Shown here: in pieces, positions 252 to 61,434 of the stretch
How positions within the stretch are numbered: position 1 is the first letter of the stretch
Layout of the letters: each line of letters begins with the position of its first letter
Assembly (NCBI RefSeq): GCF_003018255.1
Contig: NZ_CP027440.1
DNA length: 64,000 bases
Strand: one strand, 5' to 3'
DNA from: Escherichia coli
GTDB taxonomy: Bacteria > Pseudomonadota > Gammaproteobacteria > Enterobacterales > Enterobacteriaceae
Position numbers and translations under genes: made by a program
Notes under the pieces: generated by a model
Seen by the model: the letters and a program-made list of their open reading frames with translations, nothing else
Databases searched by the model: none
Told to the model about the DNA's origin: nothing

Positions 252-658
252 GCCAGCTCGTCTACTTCTCCAGCAGCTCCGAAAATACGCAGCGTTTTAT
301 CGAACGTTTAGGGCTGCCCGCGGTGCGCATTCCGCTCAATGAGCGGGAACGGATTCAGGTAGACGAGCCTTACATCCTGATCGTGCCCTCTTACGGCGGC
401 GGCGGTACGGCTGGCGCGGTGCCACGACAGGTCATTCGCTTTTTAAACGACGAGCATAACCGGGCGTTGCTGCGCGGCGTTATTGCTTCGGGTAATCGCA
501 ACTTTGGTGAGGCGTATGGCCGCGCCGGAGATGTGATTGCCCGGAAATGCGGCGTGCCGTGGCTGTACCGCTTTGAACTCATGGGTACGCAAAGCGATAT
601 CGAAAACGTTCGTAAAGGAGTAACCGAATTTTGGCAACGACAACCGCAGAACGCCTGA
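248..658 (+). CDS. nrdI: flavodoxin-like ribonucleotide reductase stimulatory protein NrdI
   Basis: 136-aa ORF overlapping nrdH stop by 4 bp; recognised as NrdI. Confidence 0.9.
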
Positions 659-2775
659 CGCAGGAAACGATGGATTATCACGCTCTGAATGCGATGCTTA
701 ACCTTTACGATAGCGCAGGTCGCATTCAGTTCGATAAAGACCGCCAGGCCGTTGACGCCTTTATTGCGACGCATGTGCGTCCGAACAGTGTGGCCTTCAG
801 TAGCCAGCAGCAGCGCCTGAACTGGCTGGTTAACGAAGGTTACTATGATGAAAGTGTCCTTAATCGCTACTCTCGCGATTTTGTCATTACGCTGTTTGCC
901 CACGCACACGCCAGCGGTTTTCGTTTTCAGACATTCCTCGGAGCATGGAAGTTTTACACCAGCTATACGTTGAAGACATTCGACGGTAAGCGTTATCTGG
1001 AAGATTTTGCCGATCGAGTCACGATGGTGGCGCTGACGCTGGCACAAGGCGATGAAACACTGGCGACGCAACTGACCGATGAGATGCTGTCAGGACGCTT
1101 TCAGCCTGCAACACCGACATTCCTCAACTGTGGTAAGCAGCAGCGCGGCGAACTGGTTTCCTGTTTTTTGCTGCGTATTGAAGACAATATGGAGTCGATT
1201 GGCCGGGCAGTAAATTCCGCACTGCAACTGTCGAAACGCGGCGGCGGCGTTGCATTTTTGCTGTCGAATCTGCGGGAAGCGGGCGCGCCAATTAAACGTA
1301 TTGAAAATCAATCTTCTGGCGTGATTCCGGTGATGAAAATGCTGGAAGACGCATTTTCCTATGCCAACCAGCTCGGCGCGCGTCAGGGTGCTGGCGCAGT
1401 CTATTTACATGCTCATCATCCCGATATTCTGCGTTTTCTCGATACAAAACGGGAAAATGCCGACGAAAAAATCCGCATTAAAACACTGTCGCTGGGCGTG
1501 GTGATCCCGGATATCACTTTCCATCTGGCAAAAGAGAATGCGCAGATGGCGCTGTTTTCGCCCTATGACATAGAGCGAGTTTATGGCAAGCCATTTGCCG
1601 ATGTCGCCATCAGTGAACACTATGACGAACTGGTTGCCGATGAACGCATTCGCAAAAAATACCTCAACGCCCGTGATTTCTTCCAGCGACTGGCAGAGAT
1701 CCAGTTTGAGTCTGGCTATCCGTACATCATGTATGAAGACACGGTTAACCGTGCTAACCCTATCGCCGGGCGCATAAATATGAGCAATCTCTGCTCAGAA
1801 ATTTTGCAGGTTAACAGCGCCTCAGAATATGACGAGAATCTCGACTATGCCCGTACAGGCCATGATATTTCCTGCAATTTAGGTTCGTTGAATATTGCCC
1901 ACACCATGGATTCCCCCGACTTTGCCCGCACGGTAGAGACTGCCGTGCGCGGTTTAACGGCAGTATCAGATATGAGTCATATCCGCAGCGTGCCGTCCAT
2001 CGAAGCCGGAAATGCCGCCTCGCACGCCATCGGACTGGGGCAGATGAATTTACACGGTTATCTGGCGCGAGAAGGCATCGCTTATGGATCGCCGGAAGCA
2101 CTCGATTTCACCAATCTCTATTTCTATACCATCACCTGGCACGCACTGCGTACCTCGATGTTGCTGGCGCGCGAACGCGGTGAAACCTTCGCCGGGTTCA
2201 AACAGTCACGCTATGCCAGTGGTGAATATTTTAGCCAATATCTGCAAGGGAACTGGCAGCCGAAAACGGCGAAAGTTGGCGAACTGTTTACCCGTAGCGG
2301 TATTACGTTACCTACCCGTGAGATGTGGGCGCAGCTGCGCGACGACGTGATGCGCTACGGCATTTACAACCAGAATCTTCAGGCGGTGCCGCCAACCGGT
2401 TCTATCTCTTATATCAACCATGCTACGTCGAGTATTCATCCGATTGTGGCGAAAGTAGAGATACGCAAAGAGGGCAAAACAGGACGCGTTTACTACCCTG
2501 CCCCGTTTATGACTAACGAGAATCTGGCGCTGTATCAGGACGCTTACGAAATTGGCGCAGAAAAGATCATCGACACCTACGCGGAAGCGACTCGCCATGT
2601 CGATCAGGGGCTGTCGCTGACGCTGTTTTTCCCCGATACCGCCACCACTCGCGATATCAACAAAGCGCAGATTTACGCCTGGCGCAAGGGTATCAAAACG
2701 CTCTATTACATTCGCCTGCGTCAGATGGCGCTGGAAGGCACTGAAATTGAAGGCTGCGTCTCCTGTGCACTTTAA
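631..2775 (+). CDS. nrdE: class Ib ribonucleotide reductase alpha subunit
   Basis: 714-aa ORF; recognised as NrdE; overlaps nrdI 3' end. Confidence 0.93.
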
Positions 2776-3744
<969 letters not shown>

Positions 3745-4099
3745 GGGGGTTATTTTCAAAAATATCACTACCCGCTGCAGGGAAATAATTCCCGCCAAAT
3801 AGCTTTATATCACGCAAATAATTTGTGGTGATCTACACTGATACTCTGTTGCATTATTCGCCTGAAACCACAATATTCAGGCGTTTTTTTGCTATCTTTG
3901 ACAAAAAATATCAACTTTTCTCGATTTGCTCTCAGCCCTTATATCATGGGAAATTCCGGCGATTTGCTCACATCAATATTCATGCCACATTTGCCATCAG
4001 GGGTTGCCTCAGATTCTCAGTATGTTAGGGTAGAAAAAAGTGACTATTTCCATTGGGTAATGTATCGACATAAACAAATAACAGGAATCTTTCTATTGC

Positions 4100-5302
4100 A
4101 TGGCAATTAAATTAGAAATTAAAAATCTTTATAAAATATTTGGTGAGCATCCACAGCGAGCTTTCAAATATATCGAACAAGGACTTTCAAAAGAACAAAT
4201 TCTGGAAAAAACTGGGCTATCGCTTGGCGTAAAAGACGCCAGTCTGGCCATTGAAGAAGGCGAGATATTTGTCATCATGGGATTATCCGGTTCGGGTAAA
4301 TCCACAATGGTACGCCTTCTCAATCGCCTGATTGAACCCACCCGCGGGCAAGTGCTGATTGATGGTGTGGATATTGCCAAAATATCCGACGCCGAACTCC
4401 GTGAGGTGCGCAGAAAAAAGATTGCGATGGTCTTCCAGTCCTTTGCCTTAATGCCGCATATGACCGTGCTGGACAATACTGCGTTCGGTATGGAACTGGC
4501 CGGAATTAATGCCGAAGAACGCCGGGAAAAAGCCCTTGATGCACTGCGTCAGGTCGGGCTGGAAAATTATGCCCACAGCTACCCGGATGAACTCTCTGGC
4601 GGGATGCGTCAACGTGTGGGATTAGCCCGCGCGTTAGCGATTAATCCGGATATATTATTAATGGACGAAGCCTTCTCAGCACTCGATCCATTAATTCGCA
4701 CCGAGATGCAGGATGAGCTGGTAAAATTACAGGCGAAACATCAGCGCACCATTGTCTTTATTTCCCACGATCTCGATGAAGCTATGCGTATTGGCGACCG
4801 AATTGCCATTATGCAAAATGGTGAAGTGGTACAGGTCGGCACACCGGATGAAATTCTCAATAATCCGGCGAATGATTATGTCCGTACCTTCTTCCGTGGC
4901 GTAGATATTAGCCAGGTGTTCAGTGCGAAAGATATTGCTCGCCGGACACCGAACGGCTTAATTCGTAAAACCCCCGGCTTCGGCCCGCGTTCAGCACTGA
5001 AATTATTGCAGGATGAAGATCGCGAATATGGCTACGTCATCGAACGCGGTAATAAGTTTGTCGGCGCGGTGTCTATCGATTCGCTTAAAGCCGCGTTAAC
5101 GCTGCAGCAAGGTCTTGATGCGGCGCTGATTGATGCGCCGTTAGCGGTCGATGCACAAACGCCTCTTAGCGAGTTGCTCTCTCATGTCGGACAGGCACCC
5201 TGTGCGGTGCCCGTGGTCGACGAGGACCAACAGTATGTCGGCATCATTTCGAAAGGAATGCTGCTGCGCGCTTTAGATCGTGAGGGGGTAAATAATGGCT
5301 GA
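4100..5302 (+). CDS. proV: glycine betaine/proline ABC transporter ATPase
   Basis: 400-aa ORF with Walker [10 protein letters not shown] and ABC signature LSGGMRQR; recognised as ProV. Confidence 0.93.
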
Positions 5303-6359
5303 TCAAAATAATCCGTGGGATACCACGCCAGCGGCGGACAGTGCTGCACAATCCGCAGACGCCTGGGGTACACCGGCTGCTGCACCGACTGACGGCGGTG
5401 GTGCTGACTGGCTGACCAGTACGCCTGCGCCAAACGTCGAGCATTTTAATATTCTCGATCCGTTCCATAAAACACTGATCCCGCTCGACAGTTGGGTCAC
5501 TGAAGGGATCGACTGGGTCGTTACCCATTTCCGTCCCGTCTTCCAGGGCGTGCGCGTTCCGGTTGATTATATCCTCAACGGTTTCCAGCAATTGCTGCTG
5601 GGTATGCCCGCTCCGGTGGCGATTATCGTTTTCGCTCTCATCGCCTGGCAGATTTCCGGGGTCGGAATGGGCGTGGCGACGCTGGTTTCGCTGATTGCCA
5701 TCGGCGCAATCGGTGCCTGGTCGCAGGCCATGGTTACCCTGGCGCTGGTGTTAACCGCCCTGCTGTTCTGTATCGTCATAGGTTTGCCGTTGGGGATCTG
5801 GCTGGCGAGAAGTCCGCGAGCGGCGAAAATTATTCGTCCACTGCTTGATGCCATGCAGACCACGCCCGCGTTTGTTTATCTGGTGCCAATCGTCATGCTG
5901 TTTGGTATCGGTAACGTGCCGGGCGTGGTGGTGACGATCATCTTTGCGCTGCCGCCGATTATCCGTCTGACGATTCTGGGAATTAACCAGGTTCCGGCGG
6001 ATCTGATTGAAGCCTCGCGCTCATTCGGTGCCAGCCCGCGCCAGATGCTGTTCAAAGTTCAGTTACCGCTGGCGATGCCGACCATTATGGCGGGCGTTAA
6101 CCAGACGCTGATGCTGGCCCTTTCTATGGTGGTCATCGCCTCGATGATTGCCGTCGGCGGGCTGGGTCAGATGGTGCTTCGCGGTATCGGTCGTCTGGAT
6201 ATGGGGCTTGCCACCGTTGGCGGCGTCGGGATTGTGATCCTCGCCATTATCCTCGACCGCCTGACGCAGGCCGTTGGGCGCGACTCACGCAGTCGCGGCA
6301 ACCGTCGCTGGTACACCACTGGCCCTGTCGGTCTGCTGACCCGCCCATTCATTAAGTAA
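5295..6359 (+). CDS. proW: glycine betaine/proline ABC transporter permease
   Basis: 354-aa hydrophobic ORF overlapping proV by 8 bp; recognised as ProW. Confidence 0.92.
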
Positions 6360-6416
6360 CTCTGCACTTGCCCGGTGACGCCGGGCATTATCACCCTGCC
6401 AAAAAAAGGAATAACA

Positions 6417-7409
6417 ATGCGACATAGCGTACTTTTTGCGACAGCGTTTGCCACGCTTATCTCTACACAAACTTTTGCTGCCGACCTGCCGGGCAAAGGC
6501 ATTACTGTTAATCCGGTTCAGAGCACCATCACCGAAGAAACTTTCCAGACGCTGCTGGTCAGCCGCGCGCTGGAGAAATTAGGTTATACCGTCAATAAAC
6601 CCAGCGAAGTGGATTACAACGTTGGCTACACCTCGCTTGCTTCCGGCGATGCAACCTTCACCGCAGTGAACTGGACGCCACTGCATGACAACATGTACGA
6701 AGCTGCCGGTGGCGATAAGAAATTTTATCGTGAAGGAGTATTTGTTAACGGCGCGGCACAGGGTTACCTGATCGATAAGAAAACTGCCGACCAGTACAAA
6801 ATTACCAACATCGCGCAACTTAAAGATCCGAAGATCGCCAAACTGTTCGATACCAACGGCGACGGTAAAGCGGATTTAACCGGCTGTAACCCAGGCTGGG
6901 GCTGCGAAGGTGCGATCAACCACCAGCTTGCCGCGTATGGACTGACCAATACCGTGACGCATAATCAGGGGAACTACGCAGCGATGATGGCTGACACCAT
7001 CAGTCGTTACAAAGAGGGTAAGCCGGTGTTTTACTACACCTGGACGCCGTACTGGGTGAGTAACGAACTGAAACCGGGGAAAGATGTGGTCTGGTTGCAG
7101 GTGCCGTTCTCCGCACTGCCGGGCGATAAAAATGCCGATACCAAACTGCCGAATGGCGCGAATTACGGCTTCCCGGTCAGTACCATGCATATCGTTGCCA
7201 ACAAAGCCTGGGCCGAGAAAAACCCGGCAGCAGCGAAACTGTTTGCCATTATGCAGTTACCAGTGGCTGATATTAACGCCCAGAACGCCATTATGCATGA
7301 CGGCAAAGCCTCAGAAGGCGATATTCAGGGCCACGTTGATGGCTGGATCAAAGCCCACCAGCAGCAGTTCGATGGCTGGGTGAATGAGGCGCTGGCAGCG
7401 CAGAAGTAA
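6417..7409 (+). CDS. proX: glycine betaine/proline periplasmic binding protein
   Basis: ORF 6375-7409; start placed at internal ATG 6417 ([11 protein letters not shown] signal peptide, about 330 aa); recognised as ProX. Confidence 0.88.
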
Positions 7410-13446: not shown

Positions 13447-13454
13447 GGTTGTCA

Positions 13455-13480
13455 AAGGGAGCTGCGGCTCCCTTTTTATT
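13455..13480 (+). terminator. rho-independent terminator after emrB
   Basis: Stem GGGAGC / GCTCCC with loop TGCG, followed by TTTTT. Confidence 0.7.
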
Positions 13481-13703
13481 TGCTCATTTTGCAAACGGTT
13501 GTTTTATCCACTCATTCGGTGTATCTTTTCGCCGCCCCAAACTCTTCCATTCACCATTAACCGGTTCTGAGCATTCGCTCAGGTTGTTAATTCTCTTTTT
13601 CTTTCGCCCTCGCTTTCGCGGGTGATACTCACATTTTTCTTTTAACCCCATAACTCGCACCCTCGCGGGCGTACATTTATTACACACAAAATAATGGATT
13701 ATT

Positions 13704-14411
13704 ATGAATACCCAACGAAAATACGGGAGAACCTGGCATTATCCTTTCTCCCCCGGCACCACCAGCGATGACCGCATTAATGCCGATTACTGGCAGGATT
13801 TACAGGCCATCACGCAATTGGTGCACACAGAAAAACTCGACGGTGAAAATAACTGCCTTAACCGCTACGGCGTGTTTGCCCGTTCCCATGCCGCGCCTAC
13901 GCAGTCGGCATGGACCTATAAAATTCGCCAACGCTGGCAACTGCTGAAAAACGATCTCGGCGATCTGGAGTTGTTTGGTGAAAATCTTTATGCCGTGCAT
14001 TCGATTGAATATCGCGCCCTGGAGCAGGATTTTTATCTGTTTGCCGTTCGCTGCCAGGATATGTGGCTGAGCTGGGAAGAGGTGCAGTTTTACGCCGCTC
14101 TGTTTGATTTCCCCTGCGTTCCCGAAATCTCCGGCCCGCAACCGGGGAATGATGAAAAAAGCTGGCAACGTGATTTTCTGGCGCTGACCAATGCGCGCGG
14201 CGCGTTCGATCCCTGGGATACGCAAACCGGGCAACCCTGTACGCTGGAAGGCATTGTCAGCAGGAATCGTGATGCGTTTTCCGTCGCTGACTTTTCGCAT
14301 AACGTCTTCAAGTATGTGCGCAAAAATCATGTCAAAATCACCGTCCACTGGAAACGACACTGGCAACGGGCGCGGATGGCCCATGAGTTCGATTATGGAG
14401 AACAGTCATGA
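13704..14411 (+). CDS. putative ATP-dependent polynucleotide (RNA) ligase-like nucleotidyltransferase
   Basis: 235-aa ORF; motif I KLDGEN (K44, nt 13833-13850), motif III LFGEN (about residue 91), motif IV EGIVSR (182-187), motif [10 protein letters not shown] (203-211), in ligase order and Rnl2-like spacing; call rests on motif reading only. Confidence 0.62.
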
Positions 14412-15520
14412 TTTGGCAGCTTACCGACGACAAACGCTGGTCGGCGCTACGTCAGCGTTTTAGCTGGGTTGAGGAGATGCATCACACGCCACAAGACCCG
14501 GAGCATCATGGTGAAGGTGACGTCGGCGTGCATACCGAAATGGTGCTGAACGCCCTCGTTACTCAGCCAGAATTCCAGCAACTCCCCGCTCAACAGCAGG
14601 AAGTTTTATGGGCGGCGGCGTTATTGCATGATGTTGAAAAGCGCAGCACTACCGTGCAGGAAAACGGACGTATTCAGTCGCCTGGCCATGCTCGTCGGGG
14701 CGAACTGACGGCCCGACAAATTTTATGGCGCGATATCCCAACGCCGTTCGTGCTACGCGAGCAAATTGTTGCGCTGGTGCGTCTGCATGGGTTACCGCTA
14801 TGGTTACTGGAACGTCCGGAACCGGAGCGTTTGCTGCTCACGGCTGCAATGCGCATCGACACGCGTCTGCTCGCTTTGCTTGCTCGTGCCGATCTGCTTG
14901 GTCGCCAAAGCCCGGATCAGCAATCAATGCTGGAACGCATCGATCTGTTCGAGCTGTTTTGCCATGAGCAACAATGCTGGGGAAAAATGCGCCCGTTCGT
15001 TTCTGATTCCGCACGCTGGCACTACCTGACTCATGAGCAAAGTTCTCCTGATTTTGTTCCCTGGGAGGCTGAACCTTTTGAGGTTATTTTGCTGTGTGGC
15101 TTACCGGGTATGGGCAAAGATCGCTATATCAGTGAACAGTGCCAGGGAATGGACGTTATCAGCCTTGATGATATGCGGCGGCGAATCAATGCCAGTCCGG
15201 ACGACAAAACCGCCACCGGGCGTATTGTGCAACAGGCAAAAGAAGAGGCGCGCGTTTTTTTACGCCAGAAAAAGCCGTTCATCTGGAATGCAACGAACAT
15301 TACCCGCCAGCTGCGCAGCCAGCTCATCAGTCTGTTTACGGCTTACGGCGCACGAGTAAAAATCGTTTATCTGGAAGTGCCATGGGCGCAATGGAAGCAG
15401 CAAAATGCCAGACGCGAGTATGCAGTTCCTGAAGCGGTCGTGATGCGGATGGCCTCAAGGCTGGAAGTTCCTCAACCTGATGAAGCACATAGCGTGGAAT
15501 ATCGGATGACTGACAGGTAA
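14408..15520 (+). CDS. putative bifunctional HD-domain phosphoesterase / P-loop polynucleotide kinase (HD-Pnk-like end-healing enzyme)
   Basis: 370-aa ORF whose ATG overlaps upstream stop (ATGA); N-terminal His cluster H33-H34, H42 and HD dyad H74-D75; C-terminal Walker A-like GLPGMGKD (nt 15098-15121); domain assignment by motif only. Confidence 0.6.
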
Positions 15521-15525
15521 CAAAA

Positions 15526-15552
15526 GCCGGGCGGTGTTTTCACCAGCCCGGC
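15526..15552 (-). terminator. rho-independent terminator at luxS 3' end (possibly bidirectional)
   Basis: Stem GCCGGGC / GCCCGGC around a 13-nt loop; on the minus strand followed by TTTTG; lies between convergent ORF 14408-15520 and luxS. Confidence 0.65.
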
Positions 15553-15570
15553 CTCTTCTGCTTAAACTGA

Positions 15571-43736: not shown

Positions 43737-43817
43737 GTGCCGGATGCGGCGTGAACGCCTTATCCGGCCTACATGTCGCACGAACCAGGTAGGCCCGATA
43801 AGCGCAGCGCATCGGGC
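43737..43817. repeat. REP elements
   Basis: gtgccggatgcggcgtgaacgccttatccggcctac and gtaggcccgataagcgcagcgcatcgggca between ascB and hycI. Confidence 0.75.
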
Positions 43818-43887
43818 AATCTGGCGTTTGCTATCAGTTCTGATTCCCTCATCAAGAACATCCCTGTCCTGATTCCTTACTGAAAAA

Positions 43888-54572: not shown

Positions 54573-55579
54573 ATAATATCCAACTCGCCCACGGTAGCGG
54601 CGGCCAGGCGATGCAGCAATTAATCAACAGCCTGTTTATGGAAGCCTTTGCCAACCCGTGGCTGGCAGAGCAGGAAGATCAGGCCCGTCTTGATTTGGCA
54701 CAGCTGGTAGCGGAAGGCGACCGTCTGGCGTTCTCAACCGACAGTTACGTCATTGACCCGCTGTTCTTTCCTGGCGGTAATATCGGCAAGCTGGCGATTT
54801 GCGGCACCGCCAATGACGTTGCGGTCAGTGGCGCAATTCCGCGCTATCTCTCCTGTGGCTTTATCCTCGAAGAAGGATTGCCGATGGAGACACTGAAAGC
54901 CGTAGTGACCAGCATGGCAGAAACCGCCCGCGCGGCAGGCATTGCCATCGTTACTGGCGATACCAAAGTGGTACAGCGCGGCGCGGCAGATAAACTGTTT
55001 ATCAACACCGCTGGCATGGGCGCAATTCCGGCGAATATTCACTGGGGCGCACAGACGCTAACCGCAGGCGATGTATTGCTGGTTAGCGGTACACTCGGCG
55101 ACCATGGGGCGACTATCCTTAACCTGCGTGAGCAACTAGGGCTGGATGGAGAACTGGTCAGCGACTGCGCGGTGCTGACGCCGCTTATTCAGACGCTGCG
55201 TGACATTCCCGGCGTGAAAGCGCTGCGTGATGCCACCCGTGGTGGTGTAAACGCGGTGGTTCATGAGTTCGCGGCAGCCTGCGGTTGTGGTATTGAACTT
55301 TCAGAAGCGGCACTGCCGGTTAAACCTGCTGTGCGCGGCGTTTGCGAACTGCTGGGACTGGACGCCCTTAACTTTGCCAACGAAGGCAAACTGGTGATCG
55401 CCGTTGAACGCAACGCAGCAGAGCAAGTGCTGGCGGCGTTACATTCCCATCCATTGGGAAAAGATGCGGCGCTGATTGGCGAAGTAGTAGAACGTAAAGG
55501 TGTTCGTCTTGCCGGTCTGTATGGCGTGAAACGAACCCTCGATCTACCGCACGCCGAACCGCTTCCGCGTATATGCTAA
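54569..55579 (+). CDS. hypE: hydrogenase maturation carbamoyl dehydratase
   Basis: 336-aa ORF ending in C-terminal PRIC; recognised as HypE. Confidence 0.93.
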   Translation: MNNIQLAHGSGGQAMQQLINSLFMEAFANPWLAEQEDQARLDLAQLVAEGDRLAFSTDSYVIDPLFFPGGNIGKLAICGTANDVAVSGAIPRYLSCGFILEEGLPMETLKAVVTSMAETARAAGIAIVTGDTKVVQRGAADKLFINTAGMGAIPANIHWGAQTLTAGDVLLVSGTLGDHGATILNLREQLGLDGELVSDCAVLTPLIQTLRDIPGVKALRDATRGGVNAVVHEFAAACGCGIELSEAALPVKPAVRGVCELLGLDALNFANEGKLVIAVERNAAEQVLAALHSHPLGKDAALIGEVVERKGVRLAGLYGVKRTLDLPHAEPLPRIC

Positions 55580-55652
55580 TAAAATTCTAAATCTCCTATA
55601 GTTAGTCAATGACCTTTTGCACCGCTTTGCGGTGCTTTCCTGGAAGAACAAA

Positions 55653-57731
55653 ATGTCATATACACCGATGAGTGATCTCGGACAGCAAGGGTTGTTCGAC
55701 ATCACTCGGACACTATTGCAGCAGCCCGATCTGGCCTCGCTGTGTGAGGCTCTTTCGCAACTGGTAAAGCGTTCTGCGCTCGCCGACAACGCGGCTATTG
55801 TGTTGTGGCAAGCGCAGACTCAACGTGCGTCTTATTACGCATCGCGTGAAAAAGACACCCCCATTAAATATGAAGACGAAACTGTTCTGGCACACGGTCC
55901 GGTACGCAGCATTTTGTCGCGCCCTGATACGCTGCATTGCAGTTACGAAGAATTTTGTGAAACCTGGCCGCAGCTGGCCACAGGTGGGCTATACCCCAAA
56001 TTTGGTCACTATTGCCTGATGCCACTGGCGGCGGAAGGGCATATTTTTGGTGGCTGTGAATTTATTCGTCATGACGATCGCCCCTGGAGCGAAAAAGAGT
56101 TCAATCGTCTGCAAACATTTACGCAGATCGTTTCTGTCGTCACCGAACAAATCCAGAGCCGCGTCGTTAACAATGTCGACTATGAGTTGTTATGCCGGGA
56201 ACGCGATAACTTCCGCATCCTGGTCGCCATCACTAACGCGGTGCTTTCCCGCCTGGATATGGACGAACTGGTCAGCGAAGTCGCCAAAGAAATCCACTAC
56301 TACTTCGACATTGACGATATCAGCATCGTCTTACGCAGCCACCGTAAAAACAAACTCAACATCTACTCCACTCACTATCTTGATAAACAGCATCCCGCTC
56401 ACGAACAGAGCGAAGTCGATGAAGCCGGAACCCTCACCGAACGCGTCTTCAAAAGTAAAGAGATGCTGTTGATTAATCTCCACGAGCGGGACGATTTAGC
56501 CCCCTATGAACGCATGTTGTTCAACACCTGGGGCAACCAGATTCAAACCTTGTGCCTGTTACCGCTGATGTCTGGCGACACCATGCTGGGCGTGCTAAAA
56601 CTGGCGCAATGCGAAGAGAAAGTCTTTACCACTACCAATCTGAGCTTACTGCGCCAGATTGCCGAACGTGTGGCAATCGCTGTCGATAACGCCCTCGCCT
56701 ATCAGGAAATTCATCGTCTGAAAGAACGGCTGGTTGATGAAAACCTCGCCCTGACCGAGCAGCTCAACAATGTTGATAGTGAATTTGGCGAGATTATTGG
56801 CCGCAGCGAAGCCATGTACAGCGTACTTAAACAAGTGGAAATGGTGGCGCAAAGTGACAGTACCGTTCTGATCCTCGGTGAAACTGGTACAGGTAAAGAG
56901 CTGATTGCCCGCGCGATCCATAATCTCAGTGGGCGTAATAATCGCCGTATGGTCAAAATGAACTGCGCGGCGATGCCTGCCGGATTGCTGGAAAGCGATC
57001 TATTTGGTCATGAGCGTGGGGCTTTTACCGGTGCCAGCGCTCAGCGCATTGGTCGTTTTGAACTGGCGGATAAAAGCTCACTATTCCTCGATGAAGTGGG
57101 CGATATGCCGCTGGAGTTACAGCCGAAGTTGCTGCGTGTATTACAGGAACAGGAGTTTGAACGTCTCGGCAGCAACAAAATCATTCAGACGGACGTACGT
57201 TTAATTGCCGCGACTAACCGCGATCTGAAAAAAATGGTCGCCGACCGAGAGTTCCGTAGCGATCTCTATTACCGTCTGAACGTATTCCCGATCCACCTGC
57301 CGCCACTACGCGAGCGTCCGGAAGATATTCCGCTGCTGGCGAAAGCCTTTACCTTCAAAATTGCCCGTCGTCTGGGGCGCAATATCGACAGCATTCCTGC
57401 CGAGACGCTGCGCATCCTGAGCAACATGGAATGGCCGGGCAACGTGCGTGAGCTGGAAAACGTCATTGAGCGCGCGGTATTGCTAACACGCGGCAACGTG
57501 CTGCAGCTGTCATTGCCAGATATTGCTTTACCAGAACCTGAAACGCCGCCTGCCGCAACGGTTGTCGCCCAGGAGGGCGAAGATGAATATCAGTTGATTG
57601 TTCGCGTGCTGAAAGAAACAAACGGCGTGGTTGCCGGGCCTAAAGGCGCTGCGCAACGTCTGGGGCTGAAACGCACGACTCTGCTGTCACGGATGAAGCG
57701 ACTGGGAATTGATAAATCGGCATTGATTTAA
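55653..57731 (+). CDS. fhlA: formate hydrogenlyase sigma-54-dependent transcriptional activator
   Basis: ORF 55617-57731; start at MSYTPMSDLGQQGLF (692 aa); AAA+ GETGTGKE and GAFTGA motifs. Confidence 0.93.
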   Translation: MSYTPMSDLGQQGLFDITRTLLQQPDLASLCEALSQLVKRSALADNAAIVLWQAQTQRASYYASREKDTPIKYEDETVLAHGPVRSILSRPDTLHCSYEEFCETWPQLATGGLYPKFGHYCLMPLAAEGHIFGGCEFIRHDDRPWSEKEFNRLQTFTQIVSVVTEQIQSRVVNNVDYELLCRERDNFRILVAITNAVLSRLDMDELVSEVAKEIHYYFDIDDISIVLRSHRKNKLNIYSTHYLDKQHPAHEQSEVDEAGTLTERVFKSKEMLLINLHERDDLAPYERMLFNTWGNQIQTLCLLPLMSGDTMLGVLKLAQCEEKVFTTTNLSLLRQIAERVAIAVDNALAYQEIHRLKERLVDENLALTEQLNNVDSEFGEIIGRSEAMYSVLKQVEMVAQSDSTVLILGETGTGKELIARAIHNLSGRNNRRMVKMNCAAMPAGLLESDLFGHERGAFTGASAQRIGRFELADKSSLFLDEVGDMPLELQPKLLRVLQEQEFERLGSNKIIQTDVRLIAATNRDLKKMVADREFRSDLYYRLNVFPIHLPPLRERPEDIPLLAKAFTFKIARRLGRNIDSIPAETLRILSNMEWPGNVRELENVIERAVLLTRGNVLQLSLPDIALPEPETPPAATVVAQEGEDEYQLIVRVLKETNGVVAGPKGAAQRLGLKRTTLLSRMKRLGIDKSALI

Positions 57732-57775
57732 CAGATGTGGTTATACTCGATCAACATTCAATGAAAGGAGGCAGT

Positions 57776-58204
57776 ATGGCAGTTTCAGCAAGAAATCAAT
57801 TAACCGGAACAGTTAGCACAGTAGCAATGGGCGCTGTGAATGATGAAGTAGAACTGACGCTGGCAGGTGGTGCAAAGCTGGTGGCAATTGTGACTCACAG
57901 CAGCCAGCAAGCGCTGGGTCTGGCGAAAGGGAAAGAAGCGATTGCCCTGATTAAAGCCCCGTGGGTCACGCTGGCAACGGAAGACTGTGGACTGAAATTC
58001 TCTGCTCGCAACCAGTTTGCTGGCAGCGTGTCGACAATCACCGAAGGCGCAGTGAACGCCACTGTCCATATCAAAACGGATGCGGGTTTTGAAATTGTGG
58101 CAGTGGTAACAAATGAAAGTCAGGATGAAATGAAACTCACCACTGGCTCGCGCGTTATTGCATTGATCAAAGCATCAGCCATCCTGATTGCCACCAAAGC
58201 GTAA
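57776..58204 (+). CDS. tandem Mop/TOBE-domain (molybdate/tungstate-binding) protein
   Basis: ORF 57737-58204; start placed at ATG 57776 preceded by AAGGAGG at 57765-57771; two about 70-aa repeats of the Mop fold; hairpin terminator follows. Confidence 0.7.
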   Translation: MAVSARNQLTGTVSTVAMGAVNDEVELTLAGGAKLVAIVTHSSQQALGLAKGKEAIALIKAPWVTLATEDCGLKFSARNQFAGSVSTITEGAVNATVHIKTDAGFEIVAVVTNESQDEMKLTTGSRVIALIKASAILIATKA

Positions 58205-58215
58205 ACGCCTTATTT

Positions 58216-58250
58216 GCCGGAGAGTATGGCTCTCCGGCAGATTTATTTCT
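58216..58250. terminator. bidirectional hairpin terminator between Mop gene and ygbA
   Basis: GCCGGAGAG-TATGG-CTCTCCGGC followed by T-rich ATTTATTTCTTT. Confidence 0.65.
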
Positions 58251-58587
58251 TTGGACGATATTTTTCTGGCAACTCCGGCACCGGACGCTTGTCATCGATG
58301 AGATGACGCACGGTTAAGATCGGATGACGCCACAGCATTCTCGGCCCGGCCCAACGCATAATCTGTTTCATCTCTTCACGCTTTGCAGGCTGGTAACAGT
58401 GCACCGGACACTGCTTACAGGCTGGTTTCTCTTCACCGAACACACATTTATCCAGCCGCTTTTGCGCGTAAGCAAACAACGCCTCGTAATGCTCCGGCTC
58501 TGCTGACGCCTGCGGGCATTTCGCTTGATAAAGATCGATCATTTTTTTAATCGTCAGTTTTTCACGAGAGATACGCTTGCCGGACAT
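58243..58587 (-). CDS. ygbA: nitrous-oxide-stimulated-promoter-family protein
   Basis: 114-aa Cys-rich ORF; recognised as YgbA. Confidence 0.85.
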   Translation of the reverse strand: MSGKRISREKLTIKKMIDLYQAKCPQASAEPEHYEALFAYAQKRLDKCVFGEEKPACKQCPVHCYQPAKREEMKQIMRWAGPRMLWRHPILTVRHLIDDKRPVPELPEKYRPKK

Positions 58588-58872
58588 GCTGCCTCCATAC
58601 TCTTAAGGTGCATTTATATTACAACTTAATTTTAAAGGGGACTATGGCTCTGAAGGAGGAGGTTTCTTCAACCGACGAATTTGGCGATCTTGTTTCATCG
58701 TCATCACGCAAAAGCTGCAAAGCAGCATTTTTCGCGGAACCGACATCAAGAACTCACCTTTCGCGTCTTCCCCTGAAATGATTAACTCCGGTATCATGTG
58801 CGCCTTATGTGATTACAACGAAAATAAAAACCATCACACTACATTTAACATCAGGGAGCCGGACTTAACCCC

Positions 58873-61434
58873 ATGAGAACAATAGAAAATTTCGACGCCC
58901 ATACGCCTATGATGCAGCAGTATCTCAAGCTGAAAGCCCAGCATCCCGAGATCCTGCTGTTTTACCGGATGGGCGACTTTTATGAACTGTTTTATGACGA
59001 CGCAAAACGGGCGTCGCAACTGCTGGATATTTCACTGACCAAACGCGGTGCTTCAGCGGGAGAGCCAATCCCGATGGCGGGGATTCCCTACCATGCGGTG
59101 GAAAACTACCTCGCCAAACTGGTGAATCAGGGCGAATCGGTTGCTATTTGTGAACAGATTGGCGATCCGGCGACCAGCAAAGGGCCGGTCGAGCGCAAAG
59201 TTGTCCGTATCGTTACGCCGGGCACCATCAGCGATGAAGCGCTGTTGCAGGAACGTCAGGACAACCTGCTGGCGGCTATCTGGCAGGACAGCAAGGGGTT
59301 CGGCTACGCCACGCTGGATATCAGCTCCGGGCGTTTTCGCCTGAGCGAACCGGCGGACCGCGAAACGATGGCGGCAGAACTGCAACGTACGAATCCAGCG
59401 GAATTACTGTATGCGGAAGATTTCGCCGAGATGTCGCTGATTGAAGGTCGCCGCGGCCTGCGTCGTCGCCCGCTGTGGGAGTTTGAAATCGACACCGCTC
59501 GCCAGCAATTGAACCTGCAATTTGGCACCCGAGATCTGGTCGGTTTTGGTGTGGAGAACGCACCACGCGGACTTTGTGCTGCCGGTTGTCTGTTGCAGTA
59601 TGCGAAAGATACCCAACGCACGACCCTGCCGCATATTCGTTCTATCACTATGGAACGTCAGCAGGACAGCATCATTATGGATGCCGCGACGCGTCGTAAC
59701 CTGGAAATTACTCAGAACCTGGCCGGCGGTGCGGAAAATACGCTGGCTTCAGTGCTCGACTGTACTGTAACGCCGATGGGTAGTCGTATGCTGAAACGCT
59801 GGCTGCATATGCCAGTGCGCGATACCCGCGTGTTGCTTGAGCGCCAGCAAACTATTGGCGCATTGCAGGATTTCACCGCCGAGCTGCAGCCGGTACTGCG
59901 TCAGGTCGGCGACCTGGAACGTATTCTGGCGCGTCTGGCTTTACGAACTGCTCGTCCACGCGATCTGGCCCGTATGCGTCACGCTTTCCAGCAACTGCCG
60001 GAGCTGCGCGCGCAACTGGAAGGTGTCGATAGCGCCCCGGTACAAGCACTGCGTGAGAAGATGGGCGAGTTTGCCGAACTGCGCGACCTGCTGGAGCGAG
60101 CAATCATCGACACGCCGCCGGTGCTGGTACGCGACGGTGGTGTTATTGCGACTGGTTATAACGAAGAACTGGATGAATGGCGCGCGCTGGCTGACGGCGC
60201 GACCGATTATCTGGAGCGTCTGGAAGTCCGCGAGCGTGAACGTACTGGCCTGGACACCCTGAAAGTCGGCTTTAACGCGGTTCATGGTTATTACATTCAG
60301 ATCAGCCGTGGACAAAGCCATCTGGCACCCATCAATTACATGCGTCGCCAGACGCTGAAAAACGCCGAGCGCTACATTATTCCAGAGCTAAAAGAGTACG
60401 AAGACAAAGTTCTCACTTCAAAAGGCAAAGCACTGGCACTGGAAAAACAGCTTTATGAAGAGTTGTTCGACCTGCTGTTGCCGCATCTGGAAGCGTTGCA
60501 ACAGAGCGCGAGCGCGCTGGCGGAACTCGACGTGCTGGTGAACCTGGCGGAACGGGCCTATACGCTGAACTACACCTGCCCGACCTTTATTGATAAACCG
60601 GGTATTCGCATCACCGAAGGCCGCCATCCGGTGGTTGAACAGGTGCTGAATGAGCCGTTTATCGCCAACCCGCTGAACCTGTCGCCGCAGCGTCGCATGT
60701 TGATCATTACCGGTCCGAATATGGGCGGTAAAAGTACCTATATGCGCCAGACCGCACTGATTGCGCTGATGGCCTACATCGGCAGCTATGTACCGGCACA
60801 AAAAGTCGAGATTGGACCTATCGATCGCATCTTTACCCGCGTAGGGGCAGCGGATGATCTGGCATCCGGGCGTTCAACCTTTATGGTGGAAATGACCGAA
60901 ACCGCCAATATTTTACATAACGCCACCGAGTACAGTCTGGTGCTGATGGATGAGATTGGGCGTGGAACGTCCACTTACGATGGTCTGTCGCTGGCGTGGG
61001 CGTGCGCGGAAAATCTGGCGAATAAGATTAAAGCGTTGACGTTGTTTGCTACCCACTATTTCGAGCTGACCCAGTTACCGGAGAAAATGGAAGGCGTCGC
61101 CAACGTGCATCTCGATGCACTGGAGCACGGCGACACCATTGCCTTTATGCACAGCGTGCAGGATGGCGCAGCGAGCAAAAGCTACGGCCTGGCGGTTGCA
61201 GCTCTGGCCGGCGTGCCAAAAGAGGTTATTAAGCGCGCACGGCAAAAACTGCGTGAGCTGGAAAGCATTTCGCCGAACGCCGCCGCTACGCAAGTGGATG
61301 GTACGCAAATGTCTTTGCTGTCAGTGCCAGAAGAAACGTCGCCTGCGGTCGAAGCACTGGAAAATCTCGACCCGGATTCACTGACTCCGCGTCAGGCGCT
61401 GGAGTGGATTTATCGCTTGAAGAGTCTGGTGTAA
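58873..61434 (+). CDS. mutS: DNA mismatch repair protein MutS
   Basis: 853-aa ORF; Walker [10 protein letters not shown]; recognised as MutS. Confidence 0.96.

Follow-up and report, generated by a model that had tools for sequence, protein, structure and literature searches.

Between fhlA, the gene for the transcriptional activator of formate hydrogenlyase (FHL), and ygbA, the 64,000-nucleotide stretch of Escherichia coli DNA analysed here (the window) carries a short gene, here called mop, that is missing from E. coli K-12. Its product consists of two domains of the Mop/TOBE type and its neighbour controls a system that depends on formate dehydrogenase H (FDH-H), a molybdoenzyme. The locus raises two questions: what the Mop protein might do next to fhlA, and whether mop was gained by some strains of E. 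coli or lost by others. An initial annotation of the sequence had proposed that the gene was inserted at this position and that it could buffer or sense molybdate for the FHL regulon.

The mop gene and its neighbours

The initial annotation described a 142-aa ORF with a strong ribosome-binding site and its own hairpin terminator, and we confirmed all three elements (Table 1). The Shine-Dalgarno sequence AAGGAGG (57765-57771) lies 4 nt 5′ of the ATG, and the stop codon of the preceding fhlA is the TAA at 57729-57731. Downstream of mop, a perfect hairpin (58212-58242) is followed by TTATTTCTTT. This hairpin has a free energy of -23.1 kcal/mol, with z = -5.7 relative to shuffled sequences, and a terminator scan agrees with its identification as an intrinsic terminator. 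The gene mutS lies beyond ygbA in the window.

Table 1. Coordinates of mop, its domains and adjacent features in the window
Feature	Position	Strand	Description and basis
fhlA, formate hydrogenlyase transcriptional activator	55653..57731	+	692 aa; ORF list, RefSeq, tblastn synteny
fhlA-mop spacer	57732..57775	+	44 nt, terminator-free; sequence, folding, cross-species spacers
mop, ModG-like di-Mop molbindin gene	57776..58204	+	142 aa plus stop codon; ORF list, profiles, dN/dS
Mop/TOBE domain 1	57785..57973	+	Residues 4-66; Pfam PF03459, E 6.9e-17; conserved columns
Mop/TOBE domain 2	58001..58186	+	Residues 76-137; Pfam PF03459, E 6.2e-16; conserved columns
Intrinsic terminator between convergent mop and ygbA	58212..58252	+	14-bp stem, 3-nt loop, T-rich tail
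ygbA, convergent neighbour, outside the mop unit	58243..58587	-	114 aa; NsrR-regulated, YgbA_NO family

RefSeq annotates the same ORF as WP_001561928.1, with the product name "TOBE domain-containing protein", in a strain of E. coli whose sequence matches the window at 100% identity over 1201 bp. Comparison with 27 orthologues gave dN/dS values of 0.02-0.10, although dS is saturated in these comparisons. Neither the length of 142 aa nor the start M[AST]VSARNQ varies between genera. Because of the low dN/dS and the invariant length and start, we conclude that mop is a real gene under strong purifying selection. A longer ORF of 155 aa that starts with GTG at 57737 is unsupported, as the orthologues all have the shorter form.

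Transcription of mop

A terminator scan detected no terminator-like site in the fhlA-mop spacer, and folding of the spacer RNA yielded nothing beyond chance (z = +0.41). The hyp-fhlA block has mop as its last gene, and from this terminator-free spacer we infer that mop is probably transcribed by read-through from fhlA.

A consensus scan of positions 55400-58900 found no sigma-70 promoter before mop. The spacer does contain the sequence TATACT (57742-57747), which is conserved in several genera but is not accompanied by an acceptable -35 element. When we compared the window with other loci (L013, L016, L023, L028, L032, L037, L042 and L043), a motif of the form cTATAcT/cTATAAa was present 25-35 nt 5′ of the mop ATG in Escherichia, Citrobacter, Kluyvera, Pluralibacter, Lelliottia and Enterobacter. 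TATACT is accordingly a candidate -10 element of a dedicated mop promoter. In Lelliottia (L042), fhlA is followed by a hairpin terminator, then by the TATA-like motif and then by mop. With a hairpin between the two genes, an independent mop promoter must exist at least in Lelliottia. Taken together, the conserved motif and the Lelliottia terminator suggest that mop also has its own promoter, and a small promoter of this kind possibly acts in addition to read-through.

Gene order across the Enterobacteriaceae

We scanned synteny using one genome per species, which gave 42 species of Enterobacteriaceae with mop. In 36 of these, fhlA is immediately upstream of mop in the same orientation, although one of these loci is degraded. 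The 36 species span about 15 genera and the divergence of mop parallels that of fhlA. The fhlA-mop order is found in E. albertii and a cryptic Escherichia clade, as well as in Citrobacter, Pseudocitrobacter, Klebsiella, Raoultella, Kluyvera, Pluralibacter, Yokenella, Lelliottia, Enterobacter and Kosakonia. It was confirmed in independent contigs from Raoultella, Pluralibacter and E. fergusonii. The spacer between the two genes varies from 36 to 104 nt across species. Orthologues of mop outside E. coli are widespread and 80-98% identical. Islands (e.g. sitABCD) enter between mop and ygbA, but never between fhlA and mop.

There are also exceptions to this order. In three of the 42 species, mop directly follows hypE with a gap of ~133 bp and without fhlA between them (L045, L050 (Phytobacter) and L053 (Kosakonia sp. 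S29), positions about 2858-4430). Another three species have neither fhlA nor hypE upstream of mop. In Raoultella sp. BIGb0138 (L024) and Enterobacter sp. BIGb0383 (L040), ascF-ascB is followed almost directly by an intact mop (~600-4430), and the adjacent hyc-hyp-fhlA block, which separates ascB and mop in E. coli, is missing. In a Pantoea genome, mop is located in an unrelated context. Some serovars of Salmonella carry a copy of mop away from fhlA, with 87% amino acid identity (L003-L005, S. enterica contigs, 5344-7146). The neighbours of mop in this island are a fimbrial usher/chaperone pair, a DUF6429 gene and IS66 TnpB. The Salmonella island copy implies that occasional transfer of mop does occur.

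The mop gene of E. fergusonii (L010/L011, 6001-6429) has 75.6% nucleotide identity to the window gene, with dS saturated, while the E. albertii gene has 91.5%. The hypE product of E. fergusonii is 99% identical at the protein level. This contrast hints that in E. fergusonii a recombination boundary lies close to fhlA/mop.

Domains and ligand residues of the Mop protein

The tandem Mop/TOBE architecture that the initial annotation had proposed was recovered in a search with the Pfam TOBE profile (Table 1). The NCBIfam model Mop (TIGR00638) likewise matches the protein twice, with 142 bits against a cut-off of 55, and no other significant domain was found with Pfam and NCBIfam profiles. The mop product is thus a stand-alone protein of ~140 aa in which just two Mop domains lie in tandem, without a DNA-binding or ATPase domain, and this is the defining arrangement of the ModG type.

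Each domain carries the ligand motifs: S4-A-R6-N7, A20-V21-N22, T40/S43 and K60-A61 in the first, and S76-A-R78-N79, A92-V93-N94, T112/S115 and K132-A133 in the second. Among 16 enterobacterial orthologues, S4, R6, A20-V21-N22, K60-A61, S76, R78, A92-V93-N94 and K132-A133 are invariant, and across 78 diverse stand-alone di-Mop proteins the same residues hardly vary. In Tub, a tungstate store, the oxyanion is held by Ser4 and Arg6, by the backbone of Ala20-Val21-Asn22 and by Lys60-Ala61, and the authors of that study call its axial oxyanion site ModG-like (PMC11980592). The ligand roles that we assign to residues of the Mop protein are transferred from the Tub and ModG structures (PMC11980592).

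An AlphaFold (AF2) monomer model based on a 78-sequence alignment has a pLDDT of 96.9. In a Foldseek comparison of the model with the PDB, ModG (1h9j) ranked first and the di-Mop domain of ModE second. The family is large: a search of 1.84 billion cluster representatives yielded 749 representatives at E <= 1e-10, which are a mix of stand-alone proteins of ~142 aa and ModE-type regulators of ~265 aa. Judging from the sequence, we are highly confident that the mop product is a ModG-type oxyanion binder, whereas its selectivity for molybdate versus tungstate is not readable from the sequence.

Possible roles of the Mop protein

In the literature we found no functional study of an enterobacterial mop gene, and a paper on the response of strain CFT073 to NO mentions ygbA but not the neighbouring mop. 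Our proposal is that the mop product is a small, cytoplasmic, stand-alone di-Mop 'molbindin' made of two tandem Mop/TOBE beta-barrels, which would bind molybdate and tungstate, both tetrahedral oxyanions. On the model of ModG, it would assemble as a trimer, i.e. a pseudo-hexamer of Mop domains. Oxyanion sites on the three-fold axis would be formed by the backbone of the A-V-N turn, and those at the subunit interfaces by the Ser and Arg of S-A-R-N together with the Lys-Ala of K-A-P/S. Such a protein could buffer or store cytoplasmic molybdate and so smooth its supply to molybdenum-cofactor synthesis, and hence to FDH-H and other enzymes. For the physiological role we lean somewhat towards a general buffer or store. 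The complete proposal, namely that mop encodes a ModG-type molybdate/tungstate-binding buffer or store that is ancestral and was lost in the K-12 lineage, is in our estimation probably correct.

The link to FHL suggested by the initial annotation is a reasonable and attractive idea that divides into two parts. Oxyanion binding is well supported by homology to ModG, as a prediction from sequence, but the case for specificity to the FHL regulon has been weakened. The evidence for an FHL-specific role is positional, and such a role is possible but weakened because mop is kept in two species without the adjacent hyc-hyp-fhlA block, because its context in Pantoea is unrelated, and because K-12 runs FHL without mop. 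Indeed, mop is dispensable, since the ~65% of E. coli that lack it, including K-12, make active FHL.

One way in which mop could nevertheless serve the formate regulon is as a sensor: the molybdate-loaded di-Mop protein would act on FhlA or on the hyc/fdhF promoters, and thereby tune the regulon to molybdenum, a job that K-12 does via ModE and a MoeA-dependent signal. The very tight adjacency to fhlA in 36/42 species, uninterrupted by islands, fits this idea, as does the role of the di-Mop module in ModE, where it serves as the sensing domain. Moreover, FHL expression responds to molybdate through ModE, with transcription of fdhF and hyc being partly dependent on molybdate and ModE (PMC3149613). 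However, the Mop protein lacks a DNA-binding domain and any recognisable domain for interaction, and covers only positions 124-261 of the ModE model. The gene is also retained without an adjacent hyc-hyp-fhlA block (L024, L040), without an adjoining fhlA (Phytobacter, Kosakonia S29), and in the unrelated contexts of Pantoea and the Salmonella island, while FHL regulation is normal in K-12 without it. We therefore regard a sensor as unlikely. It is similarly unlikely, and if anything a shade more so, that the mop product is a functional component of the enterobacterial FHL system which the K-12 lineage has lost, so that the K-12 model lacks it. As such a component, the protein could for example, once loaded with molybdate, be a partner that supplies molybdenum for the assembly of the FDH-H cofactor or that modulates FhlA.

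A different possibility is that the protein is directed at tungstate, being of the TudG rather than the ModG type, and either sequesters this antagonist from molybdenum-cofactor enzymes or stores tungsten. The sites of Mop, Tub and ModG bind both oxyanions, and stand-alone di-TOBE proteins of gut microbes have been classed as TudG/ModG, with many of them in species predicted to use tungsten (PMC11980592). On the other hand, the sequence cannot tell tungsten from molybdenum, and the closest solved relative is the molybdate-binding ModG. Enterobacteriaceae are not known to use tungstoenzymes physiologically. We consider a tungstate-directed function improbable, and a general molybdate/tungstate buffer or store remains our preferred explanation.

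Presence in E. coli and loss in the K-12 lineage

Within E. coli, mop is variable, as the initial annotation had implied. The mop segment is present in 1892 of 5426 complete genomes (35%), once in each and always on the chromosome. Carriers include O25b:H4-ST131 and O127:H6 strains, and mop is absent from K-12 (DH5a) and from O104:H4 and O111:H8 strains. O157:H7 is reported to match K-12 at this locus (PMC7232297). Alignment to DH5a bore out the predicted absence from K-12: the fhlA stop codon is directly followed by a terminator hairpin that can be aligned with the post-mop hairpin of the window. The stretch missing from K-12 is ~473 bp long and extends almost exactly from the fhlA TAA to the mop TAA. 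The deletion junction is identical in four mop-less strains (K-12, O104:H4, 7784 and RUT3575), and the hairpin at this junction can be aligned with the terminators that follow mop in Escherichia carriers and in Citrobacter amalonaticus, the latter being a close match.

These patterns bear on the direction of the change, which the initial annotation had the wrong way round in calling the gene inserted. If mop were a horizontally acquired accessory gene that entered some E. coli at the fhlA-mutS interval, this could explain why only 35% of complete genomes carry it. The interval is a known hotspot for islands (PMC7232297), and some Salmonella copies are found in another island beside IS66 TnpB. 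Yet in about 36 species from about 15 genera mop has one and the same location and orientation and has diverged in parallel with fhlA, and it is present in E. albertii, E. fergusonii and the cryptic Escherichia clade. In addition, no mobile-element genes or repeats flank mop in the window, and the four mop-less strains compared keep the mop terminator with one common junction. An insertion is contradicted by these observations and very improbable. Given the family-wide fhlA-mop order and the one common junction that retains the mop terminator, we interpret the K-12 state as a loss, and it is very likely that mop is an ancestral enterobacterial gene that the K-12 lineage has lost by deletion. 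Most parsimoniously, this loss was one event in the E. coli lineage that includes K-12, and a single deletion of ~473 bp between the stop codons of fhlA and mop would have removed the gene.

Some smaller differences between strains were also noted. The terminator hairpins of E. coli with and without mop differ by a compensatory change (GGAGAG/CTCTCC versus GGACAG/CTGTCC). At the 3′ end of ygbA (58243-58260 in the window, 1869-1890 in L001) there is a 9-bp difference, such that ygbA encodes 114 aa in the presence of mop and 117 aa in its absence. By blastn, an ST80 comparison strain is 100% identical to the window over the mop region and ~98% elsewhere, with two indels. Between ascB and hycI (~43773-43868), the ST80 strain has an extra 1.3 kb, encoding a hypothetical protein and an HTH-domain protein, that is not in the window, and its hycE and srlE are annotated as frameshifted. 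Conversely, the window has a two-gene cassette of 2.1 kb (13448-15565) between emrB and luxS, with plus-strand ORFs at 13704-14411 and 14408-15520, that is absent from the ST80 strain, where IS200C occupies the site. RefSeq names the two products 'RNA ligase family protein' and 'ATP-binding protein', and the 370-aa product has weak HD/CCA-like and polynucleotide-kinase-like matches. The cassette occurs in 999 of 5426 complete E. coli genomes and has no PADLOC match. It may be an RNA-repair or defence-like module.

Implications

As an ordinary and already annotated member of a known family, mop is of modest importance, and is mildly interesting only because it is so tightly linked to fhlA across the family and because the K-12 lineage has lost it. 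Where the hyp-fhlA cluster ends, E. coli K-12 represents a deletion variant, and models of molybdenum homeostasis or of molybdenum-dependent FHL control that derive from K-12 leave out a predicted cytoplasmic molybdate/tungstate binder. Most of the Enterobacteriaceae sampled carry this protein, as do roughly one in three E. coli, among them ST131 and EPEC O127:H6 types. If the Mop protein affects molybdenum supply or tungstate sequestration, strains could differ in anaerobic formate/nitrate metabolism and in their response to tungstate, a compound that has been proposed for restraining Enterobacteriaceae in the inflamed gut. If it were instead a component of the FHL system, carriers (B2/ExPEC types, Klebsiella and Citrobacter) would be expected to differ from K-12 in molybdenum economy and tungstate sensitivity. 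The analysis also corrects the names 'modE' and 'transporter' that have been given to mop.

Comparison with known Mop-domain proteins

The regulator ModE of E. coli shares with the Mop protein two tandem Mop domains and the molybdate-binding motifs. The match to the C-terminal di-Mop part of ModE (PDB 1h9r, 1h9s, 1o7l and 1b9m) has an E of 4e-15 at ~34% identity, and the predicted fold superposes with a TM of 0.88. However, ModE has an N-terminal winged-helix DNA-binding domain that the Mop protein lacks, so the latter cannot be a ModE-type regulator. A paper of 2020 on SPI-1 already mentions mop, under the name "modE" (PMC7232297). This is a misnomer, as the DNA-binding half of ModE is missing. 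The ABC ATPases ModC and WtpC contain a TOBE domain of the same fold family and give weak sequence matches to the Mop protein, but they have an ATPase domain, which the Mop protein does not, so that the database name 'transporter' is likewise a misnomer. With the ModC/WtpC models, only the C-terminal TOBE part matches, at 47-49 bits against cut-offs of 285-440. The reading of mop as a truncated ModE-like regulator or a fragment of an ABC 'transporter', which draws on the database names ('modE', 'molybdate transport system regulatory protein' and 'transporter'), on the name in PMC7232297 and on a resemblance to ModE and ModC in their C-terminal halves, is refuted by the domain content and retains practically no probability: the ModE equivalog model, with a cut-off of 369 bits, gives 87 bits and matches through its di-Mop half only (positions 124-261 of 263), the ModC model scores 47 against 285, the 142-aa length is invariant across genera under strong selection, and ModG is a better match than ModE.

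The single-domain storage proteins MopII of C. pasteurianum (1gug), Mop of S. ovata (1fr3) and Tub of E. limosum (9beb) have the same domain and ligand residues as the Mop protein. The numbering of the Tub ligand residues (S4, R6, A20-V21-N22 and K60-A61) is even identical in Mop domain 1, and in the model each half of the Mop protein superposes on the single-domain Mop/Tub proteins with an rmsd of 1.1-1.4 A. The single-domain proteins are ~70 aa long and form homohexamers, whereas the mop product is a fused pair, of which three chains would match that assembly.

The most similar known system is ModG of Azotobacter vinelandii (PDB 1h9j, 1h9k and 1h9m), a cytoplasmic di-Mop molbindin. The two differ in setting. 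Its host is a nitrogen fixer with a high demand for molybdenum, which the host of mop is not. The modG gene lies in the mod locus and is regulated by ModE, whereas mop ends the hyp-fhlA block and no mod genes were found near it. Such linkage is a matter of genomic context and does not strictly define the ModG type. A ModE-box of the form TATAT-N7-TAYAT, with at most one mismatch, is absent from the 64-kb window, although this consensus is simplified and the result neither supports nor excludes control by ModE. The proteins themselves are closely alike. ModG has 145 aa compared with 142 aa here, likewise consists of two tandem Mop domains and nothing else, and has the S-A-R-N, A-V-N and K-A ligand motifs in both domains, as does the Mop protein. 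The match to 1h9j is full-length (residues 1-140, phmmer E 1.7e-32, 48% identity), and the predicted Mop fold superposes on this structure with a TM of 0.95 and an rmsd of 1.4 A. Proteins of the ModG type are trimers that bind eight molybdates or tungstates, and by analogy the Mop protein may also be a trimer.
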